From: Escherichia coli
GTDB taxonomy: Bacteria; Pseudomonadota; Gammaproteobacteria; Enterobacterales; Enterobacteriaceae
Direction: 5' to 3' (one strand)
DNA length: 64,000 nt
Assembly: GCF_036507355.1 (NCBI RefSeq)
Contig: NZ_AP027877.1
Part shown: positions 31,477-60,013 of the stretch, piece by piece
Layout: each line of letters opens with the position of its first letter
Numbering within the stretch: the first letter of the stretch is position 1
Translations under genes and position numbers: made by a program
Notes under the pieces: generated by a model
Seen by the model: the letters and a program-made list of their open reading frames with translations, nothing else
Databases searched by the model: none
What the model was told of the DNA's origin: nothing

Positions 31477-31714
31477 TGTTCATGTTCTGTGCATCCCGTC
31501 ACAAATTCCTCGCTTTTGTAATTCTGGCATTTAATCGCATTTTGTGAGCCTGCTCAAATCTGCCCGCTTTGCCTCTCTGGCGGCAATTTACTTTACGTAA
31601 AACATGCATACTATGAGCACATGTTTAAATATGAACACATGTTTAAACTGTCTTTGCAGTATCTATATTCTTGTGGATTGACAGGGTTGGTAATTTTTTA
31701 CCAGAGGACGTGCT

Positions 31715-49950: not shown

Positions 49951-49987
49951 GGCTGTAACCGTTTCCATTGCTGTGACTCGATTCACG
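49951..49987. promoter_or_regulatory. galS promoter elements: gal-type operator half-sites plus CRP site
   Basis: gctgtaaccgtttccattgc is gal-operator-like; TGTGActcgatTCACG (49972-49987) fits the CRP consensus. Confidence 0.6.
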
Positions 49988-51104: not shown

Positions 51105-51132
51105 CCGCTTTCAATCTGTGAGTGATTTCACA
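51093..51132. promoter_or_regulatory. mglBAC control region: gal/mgl operator overlapping the galS stop codon, plus CRP site
   Basis: atGTAACCGcTTTCAa operator-like sequence at 51099-51114; TGTGAgtgatTTCACA (51117-51132) is a perfect CRP consensus. Confidence 0.7.
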
Positions 51133-56468: not shown

Positions 56469-57700
56469 GAGCAAGCTCCCTCTAAATAGTAATGAATCGC
56501 CTCGGCGGCTTCTTTCCCGGTTTTCACGGCATAGACCACGGTTTTGTCACCCTCAACAATATCGCCAGCAGCAAAGACTTGCGGATCGCGGGTCTGATAA
56601 TTTTGTGTTTTGATGGTGTTACGCTGCGGCTCTAACTCCGCAAAGGCATCCAGTCTGGCATGCTGACCGACGGCGAGAATAATTTTATCTGCCACCATCG
56701 TCAGTTCGCCCGATAACCGTACATGCTTAAACGTGACTTTATTGCCTTCCACGGCTACTGGCGTGAATCCATCGATGATCGAAACGCCCAGCTCCCGGGC
56801 GCTGGCAAACTCTTTTTCGCTTGCCGGAAACTCATCTAACTCTTCACGCGCTACGCAAGTTACCGCCTGACAGCCGAGAACTTTCAGCGTGCTGGCTACG
56901 TCCATCGCGACATCACCGCCGCCGATAATTAATGCGCTTTGTGGAATGCTGATATCGCCTTGCACCTGTCGTGCACGTTGCAGGAAGTCCACGGCAATCT
57001 CAACGTCGCTATGCTCAAACAGCGGTAGCCCGGAACCGCTTGATAACCCCACGGTGACCAGTACCGCGCGGTTTTCCGCTTTCAGTTGCTCCAGGGTTAG
57101 TGTTTTACCGACTTCGTTGTTGCACTTAATGGTCACGCCCATTTTTTCAATACGGGCGATCTCTGCATCCAGTACTGATTGCGGTAACCGGAATTGCGGA
57201 ATGCCGTTACGCAACCAGCCACCGGGTTGTGCTTCTTTCTCATAGATCGTGACGTCATAACCCTGGTTTGTCAGTGTCACACTGGCCTGCAATCCGGCAG
57301 GACCTGCGCCAATAATCGCGACTTTGCCGAGCGTTTTAGTACCGGGCTGATAAATTTCCATCCCGGTTTGTTGTTCAAAATCAGTAACAAAACGCTGTAA
57401 GCGGCCGATATCAATGGGAGCATCAACACCGGCACGGGTACAACCGCTTTGGCATAATTTCTCCGTCGGGCACACTCTGGCACAAACGGCACCGAGGGCA
57501 TTATTTTCGCGAATTGTCTCGGCAGCGCCTTTAAAATTACGAAAGTAGATTGAGCGAATAAATTTCCCCGGATCGGTCTGTGCCGGGCAAGCCTGACTAC
57601 AGGGAGCGTCGTGACATAATAAACAGCGAGAGGCTTCTTTAATCGCCAGTAACGGCGTAAAAGCCGGAGTGAGTTCATCCAGATAATTTTGTTGCGGCAT
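56462..57700 (-). CDS. preT: NAD-dependent dihydropyrimidine dehydrogenase subunit PreT (412 aa)
   Basis: N-terminal Fe-S cysteines and GltD-like FAD/NAD-binding domain (IIGAGPAG); 7-nt overlap with preA. Confidence 0.9.
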
Positions 57701-57737
57701 GTGATCTTCCTTAATGCTATGAGTAATTAAGGCGAAC

Positions 57738-57872
57738 GCTAATATACTCGTCATACTTCAAGTTGCATGTGCTGCGTCTGCGTTCGCTCACCCCAGTCAC
57801 TTACTTATGTAAGCTCCTGGGGACTCACTCACTTGTCGCCTTCCTGCAACTCGAATTATTTAGAGTATAAAT
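57738..57872. repeat. ERIC (IRU) enterobacterial repetitive intergenic element
   Basis: Contains cgctcaccccagtcacttactt and atgtaagctcctggggactcac, matching the ERIC2 and ERIC1R consensus cores, within an imperfect palindrome. Confidence 0.75.
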
Positions 57873-57916
57873 ATTGCGTGCTGATATTAAGGCTATGCGC
57901 GTGGGGAAATTTAAAC

Positions 57917-57932
57917 TGTGAAAGGATTCACA
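57917..57932. promoter_or_regulatory. Perfect CRP consensus site upstream of preT
   Basis: TGTGAaaggatTCACA, about 217 bp upstream of the preT start. Confidence 0.5.
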
Positions 57933-58017
57933 AATAGCTGCGGTTCAGAATGTTATATCCGCAGCTTATTGAGTGAAGTAATAATTATTCTCAATAATTA
58001 ACAGAAAAGAGAAAATA

Positions 58018-60013
<1,996 letters not shown>

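Follow-up and report, generated by a model that had tools for sequence, protein, structure and literature searches.

In this E. coli strain the intergenic gap between yeiS and preT holds a CRP box and, between that box and the preT start codon, a copy of the repeat ERIC. The question raised by the locus is from which promoter CRP would act on the preTA (yeiTA) operon, which encodes dihydropyrimidine dehydrogenase, and whether the repeat lies inside the leader of its mRNA. The explanation that we favor, with a probability of roughly three in four, is that preTA has a class II CRP-dependent promoter and that ERIC has been inserted in the predicted leader of this promoter.

The yeiS-preT Intergenic Region

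The genes of the locus lie on the minus strand in the order sanA-yeiS-preT-preA, the names being taken from the RefSeq annotation of near-identical E. coli loci. The features discussed here are collected in Table 1. From the preT ATG to the end of the yeiS stop codon at 58018 the gap measures 317 bp, the figure given in the first-pass annotation. The ERIC repeat reported there in that annotation is confirmed by primer matches, inverted repeats, multicopy occurrence and a TA duplication, and the CRP consensus, described as perfect, is indeed exact in both half-sites. Three of the dimensions given at that stage have to be corrected. ERIC, said to occupy most of the gap, takes up 127 of the 317 bp (40%), the spacing between ERIC and the CRP box is 47 nt and not 45, and the box, placed about 217 bp from preT, has its centre 224.5 bp from the ATG. 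In K-12, 101.5 bp separate this centre from the start codon; the distance is large in the present strain because ERIC has been inserted between the box and the gene.

On the yeiS side of the gap, a hairpin with a 7-bp stem, a 15-nt loop and a weak U-tract could serve as the terminator of the yeiS unit. It is kept within E. coli and was not flagged in our terminator scan because its loop is longer than 8 nt. The 3' arm of this hairpin stops 4 nt before the CRP core, so that the putative terminator overlaps the CRP site on its left flank. A plus-strand open reading frame of 56 aa (57767-57937) was considered as a gene and rejected, because nothing supports it and its place is within the ERIC palindrome.

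Table 1. Features of the yeiS-preT region, with positions in the window and the basis of each assignment.
Feature	Position	Strand	Description and basis
preT start codon ATG	57700-57698	-	RefSeq annotation of near-identical E. coli loci and frame check
Native leader inverted repeat CCTTAAT-N10-ATTAAGG (repeat I5)	57709-57732	-	3' arm overlaps the Shine-Dalgarno sequence AAGGAAG
ERIC element	57743-57869	-	127 bp including two TA target-site copies; primer matches, inverted repeats, alleles, multicopy
In-frame upstream ATG, ERIC right end	57752-57754	-	Open reading frame list, sequence
Predicted transcription start	57881-57883 (C/A/G)	-	7-9 nt after the -10 hexamer; predicted from geometry
Predicted -10 hexamer TAGCCT	57890-57895	-	-12 to -7 if the CRP centre is at -41.5; conservation
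22-bp CRP site ATTTGTGAATCCTTTCACAGTT	57914-57935	-	Core 57917-57932, centre 57924.5; exact match
Putative weak intrinsic terminator, yeiS unit end	57933-57970	-	Hairpin GCTGCGG-N15-CCGCAGC then UAUUUGUG; read from sequence

The ERIC Element and Its Alleles

The 127-bp sequence is the known mobile repeat ERIC, a typical member of the MITE family ERIC/IRU. Two TA target-site copies (57868-57869 and 57743-57744) flank the element proper, which extends from 57745 to 57867. The ERIC-PCR primer ERIC2 matches at 57785-57806 on the minus strand with no mismatch and ERIC1R at 57807-57828 on the plus strand with one, the chance expectation being zero in both cases; the sequences of the two primers are quoted together in 246 papers, which confirms them. 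The ends of the element are inverted repeats with 25-nt arms (57743-57767 and 57845-57869) that are 80% complementary. When the 127-mer was searched in E. coli genomes, it was present in 5425 of 5426, in 2 to 20 places each (median 11). Only this copy is found in the window, that is, in the whole 64-kb stretch of DNA that was analyzed. Among the papers searched, none linked ERIC with yeiS or yeiT.

The sole Rfam match was to V_AS5 at 57747-57870 on the minus strand (E = 7e-9). Its score of 46.7 bits is well under the gathering score of 96, and V_AS5 was rejected as the true family of this segment; we read the match as reflecting ERIC-like sequence and not V_AS5 membership. V_AS5, a Vibrio antisense RNA family, aligns end to end with the ERIC of the window, which suggests that an ERIC-like repeat underlies the family.

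Many of the 5426 complete E. coli genomes align to our query in two pieces, with a span about 125 bp shorter, and an alignment of representatives showed an empty site at the ERIC position in K-12, an O157-like strain and strain DA33135. The empty site reads CAATATT-TA-TTTAGCG and the filled site CAATATT-TA-[TACTC...GAGTA]-TA-TTTAGCG, with one TA on each side of the element as against a single TA when it is empty. This duplication is what insertion of ERIC predicts. In the window copy, one T has been lost directly after ERIC. To count the alleles, we used junction-specific queries on the same 5426 genomes. The ERIC-filled allele was found in 2182 genomes (about 40%), a precise empty allele, carried among others by O157:H7, APEC O18 and a Nissle derivative, in 1700, and a K-12-type empty allele in 1472. 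Together the three account for 5354 genomes (98.7%), 3172 of them empty. K-12, BL21, O157 and B2 strains all have an empty site. The flanks of filled and precise-empty alleles are 99.8% identical over the shared 77% of the 521-bp query. ERIC in the preTA leader is a common strain polymorphism and not a special regulatory design.

Related variants occur at the same place in other strains. In Escherichia albertii a full-length, diverged ERIC occupies nearly the same position at preT, a 6-nt indel in the alignment accounting for the offset; its identity to the window copy is about 80%, and its predicted fold has -55.9 kcal/mol. The divergent 'E. coli' strain E69 has an internally deleted ERIC at the preT site. 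In AR435 and Escherichia sp. MOD1-EC7003 the element carries a 78-bp internal insertion (CAAATCCGCATGGAGCGGATTTG...GGGCCGAATAAC) and represents a 'long ERIC' variant, which in MOD1-EC7003 has an internal deletion too. From the variants in E. albertii, E69 and other strains it follows that the preTA leader is a long-standing landing site for small mobile elements.

In strain HCP30S3 a second small element comes directly after ERIC, with about 114 bp between ERIC and the Shine-Dalgarno region of preT. It has inverted ends (GGAAGGTGCGAATAAG...CTTATTCGCACCTTCC) and a duplicated TTAG on both sides; these resemble the ends of IS5 and its YTAR target, and the element may be an IS5-derived MITE. At the K-12-type empty site the sequence is TTTAC-TAAAC, and E69 has TTTAC[CC...short ERIC...GGG]TAAAAC there. 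The K-12 empty allele may be the footprint of an imprecise excision and not a site that was never occupied.

The CRP Site

The CRP core, TGTGAatcctTTCACA / TGTGAAAGGATTCACA, matches both half-sites exactly. The only other perfect box in the 64 kb is the mglB site at 51117, and about 0.1 perfect boxes would be expected by chance. When up to one mismatch was allowed, 8 boxes were found against 1.8 expected, and none of 100 shuffled sequences reached 8. Other CRP-like boxes in the window include those at 49972 (galS) and 60073 (cdd), which, like the mglB site, are in the Shimada/RegulonDB tables, and further ones at 31488, 31543, 40714 and 62114.

The preT box is already catalogued as the RegulonDB-listed yeiTA (preTA) site. 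Shimada et al. (2011; PMC3105977) give yeiT as a RegulonDB CRP target that was also recovered by genomic SELEX; according to their supplementary tables, the SELEX-chip signal peaks between yeiS and yeiTA, where the box TGTGAAAAGATTCACA stands at about 2.23195 Mb. The tables also reproduce the RegulonDB row 'yeiTA, activator, -57.5'. The same K-12 site is listed for preTA in the PredCRP paper, citing Mihara et al. (2008), and the preT mRNA was 4.7-fold up by qPCR when 1 mM cAMP was supplied to a K-12 cyaA mutant (PMC5772556, Table S2). In the supplement of a Crp ChIP-exo study only the sanA-yeiS unit appears, and preT is absent (PMC5957442). The published CRP-binding and cAMP expression data all come from K-12, which is free of ERIC at this site.

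For a comparison across species, preT loci were collected with one genome per species and the 80 best loci were kept. Neither half-site departs from the consensus in Escherichia, Citrobacter, Pseudocitrobacter, three of the four Kluyvera species, a Raoultella MAG and Salmonella arizonae. The fourth Kluyvera species, Kluyvera ascorbata, differs: one of its loci (L028) has a single mismatch, and in the short upstream sequence of another (L029) no box was found. Where nothing is inserted, the distance from box to ATG is 91-113 bp (once 123 bp) in Citrobacter, Pseudocitrobacter, Kluyvera and the Raoultella MAG, and 101 bp in the empty Escherichia alleles.

Such conservation bears on one alternative, namely that the CRP-like sequence is a chance palindrome, or a part of the yeiS terminator region, without a role at preT. 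The box does abut the terminator-like hairpin. However, the low chance expectation, the perfect half-sites in four other genera and the K-12 SELEX and cAMP data all argue against this alternative, and a chance match was rejected on the conservation and the published binding data; we regard it as effectively refuted, its probability being negligible.

Two of the loci kept deserve separate mention. On a contig labelled Aeromonas finlandensis 4287D, preT shares 90% identity with the E. coli gene and is preceded by a Citrobacter-like upstream region with the CRP box and the hexamer TAGCCT discussed below, which suggests contamination, mislabelling or recent transfer. Salmonella enterica subsp. arizonae has both the CRP box and the leader, but its PreT match covers residues 14-126 only, so the gene may be disrupted; no other Salmonella is among the 80 best preT loci kept.

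Predicted Position of the preTA Promoter

To locate the promoter, we aligned 18 uninterrupted upstream regions from Escherichia, Citrobacter, Pseudocitrobacter, Kluyvera, the Raoultella MAG and the Aeromonas-labelled contig. Three conserved islands emerge, the CRP box, the hexamer TAGCCT and a block directly before the ATG; between the second and the third of these the sequences diverge with indels. TAGCCT is invariant in all 18 sequences and lies exactly 21 nt after the CRP box in each. Counted from the centre of the box it occupies positions 30-35 downstream, which correspond to -12 to -7 for a CRP centre at -41.5, the spacing of a class II promoter. As an internal control the window offers the mglB promoter, with TATGAT at the same distance of 30-35 and a RegulonDB CRP position of -41.5. 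In Kluyvera, there is no -10-like hexamer other than TAGCCT between the box and the ATG.

Because the CRP box and TAGCCT are conserved at the spacing expected for -41.5, and because mglB shows this arrangement, the best-supported prediction is that preTA has an ordinary sigma-70, class II CRP-dependent promoter, with the CRP centre at -41.5, TAGCCT as its -10 hexamer and a start near 57883, corresponding to 2233973/4 of K-12 U00096.3. TAGCCT is a weak -10 sequence (3/6 matches) that was not reported by the promoter scan, which found no promoter-like sites on the minus strand in 57600-58100, and its conservation could come from another bound factor. A second, upstream CRP site at about -93, as in CytR-regulated promoters, was not visible by eye. 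In the transcription start data of Kim (2012; PMC3415461), yeiT has a 2-read start inside yeiS only and none that is promoter-proximal, in keeping with a promoter that stays silent unless CRP is active. The Cappable-seq supplementary tables gave no coordinate match for a preT start.

The RegulonDB entry implies a different start. The promoter would be class I-like, with CRP centred at about -57.5 to -61.5 and the -10 hexamer in the AT-rich stretch upstream of the insertion, where K-12 offers CATTAT or TATTAT and the window AATATT or TATACT, the last created by the ERIC junction. A centre at -57.5 places the K-12 start at 2233989, 16 nt downstream of our prediction, and TATTAT, at 50-55 from the box centre in K-12, would give a start at 62 and CRP at -61.5. 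ERIC would then begin at about -4 to +2, the mRNA would start with nearly all of the element, whose insertion could alter promoter strength or the choice of start site. The entry itself ('yeiTA activator -57.5'), the position of TATTAT and the creation of TATACT at the junction all speak for such a start. On the other hand, the -10 candidates are unconserved even within E. coli (K-12 TACATTATTAT, window CACGCAATATT) and fall in the indel region in other genera, with nothing -10-like there in Kluyvera. What is more, a centre at -57.5 would be about 4 bp out of phase with the class I positions known for CRP. We consider this start distinctly unlikely. The RegulonDB position of -57.5 may deserve re-examination, since the cross-genus conservation of TAGCCT fits -41.5; the K-12 region in question, U00096.3 2233924-2234033, is equivalent to 57700-57932 of the window.

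The class II prediction changes how the distance between the box and preT is to be read. The first-pass annotation had called the distance far for a class I or II site. The box is far from the ATG, as stated, but the distance had been measured to the ATG and not to the transcription start. The suggestion of a CRP promoter with ERIC in its 5' untranslated region is supported by conservation, by the K-12 site and by position, except that the promoter need not be a 'distal' one: it would be the ordinary preTA promoter, at the documented K-12 CRP site. Likewise, an ERIC in the leader of the dihydropyrimidine dehydrogenase operon is probable for the window strain and is not a fixed trait, as about 60% of genomes are without it.

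ERIC within the Predicted Leader

According to the class II model, CRP-cAMP bound at the box would activate the normal sigma-70 preTA promoter and transcription would begin near 57883 on the minus strand. The TA dinucleotide that received ERIC would lie about 15 nt downstream of this start, so that the element would occupy +15 to +141 and lengthen the leader to about 183 nt from the 59-60 nt predicted for empty alleles. The insertion would leave intact the promoter, the native hairpin that overlaps the Shine-Dalgarno sequence and the start codon. With the promoter intact upstream of the element, CRP-cAMP would still act at its ordinary distance from the start. Both the exact start site and the co-transcription of ERIC are what we infer, the latter from position only; ERIC would be inside the preTA leader whether the start corresponds to -41.5 or to the RegulonDB value of -57.5. 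The native sequence between ERIC and the ATG is 42 nt long, which leaves no room there for an independent native promoter.

In the preT sense, ERIC RNA has a predicted folding energy of -52.7 kcal/mol (z = -7.5), in the form of a long hairpin with imperfect pairing; the opposite strand is less stable, at -38.9 kcal/mol. When the leader is folded as a whole, the predicted hairpins of ERIC and of the native Shine-Dalgarno region form separate modules, and empty leaders are otherwise unstructured. The native inverted repeat was compared in 14 sequences from Escherichia, Citrobacter, Pseudocitrobacter, Kluyvera and the Aeromonas-labelled contig. All 7 pairs are kept in 14 of 14; six are invariant and one changes from C-G to U-G, with no covariation, and the spacer has a fixed length of 10 nt and a variable sequence. 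The repeat could be an RNA hairpin that sequesters the Shine-Dalgarno sequence or a palindromic operator for a protein.

The right end of ERIC brings in an ATG that is in frame with preT, with no intervening stop codon, and that would add 18 codons (MTSILAFALITHSIKEDH) to PreT. As a result, mechanical calling of open reading frames gives a PreT that is 18 residues longer; in RefSeq the start is the standard one. The upstream ATG is probably unused, because it is in the hairpin stem and has no well-spaced Shine-Dalgarno sequence.

Possible Consequences for preTA Expression

A stable hairpin in the leader could in principle uncouple preTA from the CRP promoter. Upstream transcripts would be blocked or terminated by the hairpin, or preT would be driven by a promoter formed at the junction, with TATATT as its -10 (GAG-TATATT-AGC) and a leader of about 35 nt, and ERIC-bearing strains would express preTA unlike K-12 or outside CRP control. 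The end of ERIC together with the TA duplication does create TATATT, a hexamer with 5/6 matches, and the hairpin is very stable. However, the hexamer is accompanied by no acceptable -35 (the best is ATGCAA, 3/6) and no TG extension, and the scans detected neither a promoter-like nor a terminator-like site on the minus strand. The hairpin was likewise rejected as an intrinsic terminator, since no U-tract follows it (UAUAUUAGCG) and the terminator scan finds nothing. The perfect CRP box and TAGCCT are unchanged in the aligned filled alleles, and E. albertii also keeps an ERIC here, which is hard to reconcile with a crippling insertion. Uncoupling therefore appears very improbable to us.

A functional precedent comes from Yersinia, where co-transcribed ERICs were suggested to alter mRNA stability (De Gregorio et al., 2005); as summarized by Delihas (PMC2229807, PMC3184786), the effect is orientation-dependent, operates through an RNase E site and concerns the upstream cistron. 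For preTA we expect the effect of ERIC on mRNA stability, processing and translation to be modest or none, because the flanks of the filled and precise-empty alleles are near-identical (99.8%), both of these alleles are common and the promoter elements are unchanged in the aligned filled alleles. That ERIC would measurably change any of these, such that ERIC+ and ERIC- strains differ in dihydropyrimidine dehydrogenase when catabolite-derepressed, seems unlikely.

The anticancer drug 5-fluorouracil is inactivated by the bacterial dihydropyrimidine dehydrogenase PreTA (bioRxiv 10.1101/820084), and work on this enzyme uses K-12 strains, which are without this ERIC. Should the insertion in the leader change expression, findings made in K-12 would not be transferable to the ERIC-bearing fraction of E. 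coli, the rates of uracil and thymine reduction and of 5-fluorouracil inactivation would differ by allele, and the ERIC junction would be an easy genotype marker for strain-level differences in drug metabolism. The locus is a clean natural allele pair on which the effect of an ERIC in a 5' leader can be tested, since the flanks are near-identical and the presence of ERIC is the main difference. Otherwise, it is an ordinary MITE polymorphism beside an already catalogued CRP site, and the interest that remains lies in the expression of an operon relevant to 5-fluorouracil and in the fact that RegulonDB gives a position at odds with the class II spacing that is conserved.

Comparison with Known Systems

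Compared with the ERIC/IRU family, the element shows no structural difference. It shares with the family the length of 127 bp with TA ends, the terminal inverted repeats, the primer core and the duplicated TA target, as well as the presence of about 11 copies per E. coli genome, a predicted transcribed intergenic position and a predicted long RNA hairpin. What distinguishes the copy in the preTA leader is that it is missing in K-12.

The similarity to the Yersinia ERICs, as far as these are described in the sources cited above, consists in the location within a transcription unit, here deduced from position, and in the predicted folding of the RNA into a hairpin. The Yersinia elements that were tested lie between or after genes, whereas that of preTA would belong to a 5' leader, which no translated gene precedes in the transcript.

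The arrangement of the predicted promoter is that of class II promoters such as galP1 and, within the window, mglB. The preT box would overlap the -35 position, the putative -10 hexamer is found at 30-35 from the box centre, and T-12, A-11 and T-7 are kept (TAGCCT as against TATGAT in mglB). In contrast to galP1 and mglB, the start and the direct activation of RNA polymerase by CRP are predicted for preTA. Finally, the site is orthologous to the K-12 yeiTA site of RegulonDB and EcoCyc, where CRP is an activator: it reads TGTGAATCTTTTCACA in K-12 and TGTGAATCCTTTCACA in the window, within the same flanks, and in the window it stands 123 bp further from the ATG because of ERIC.
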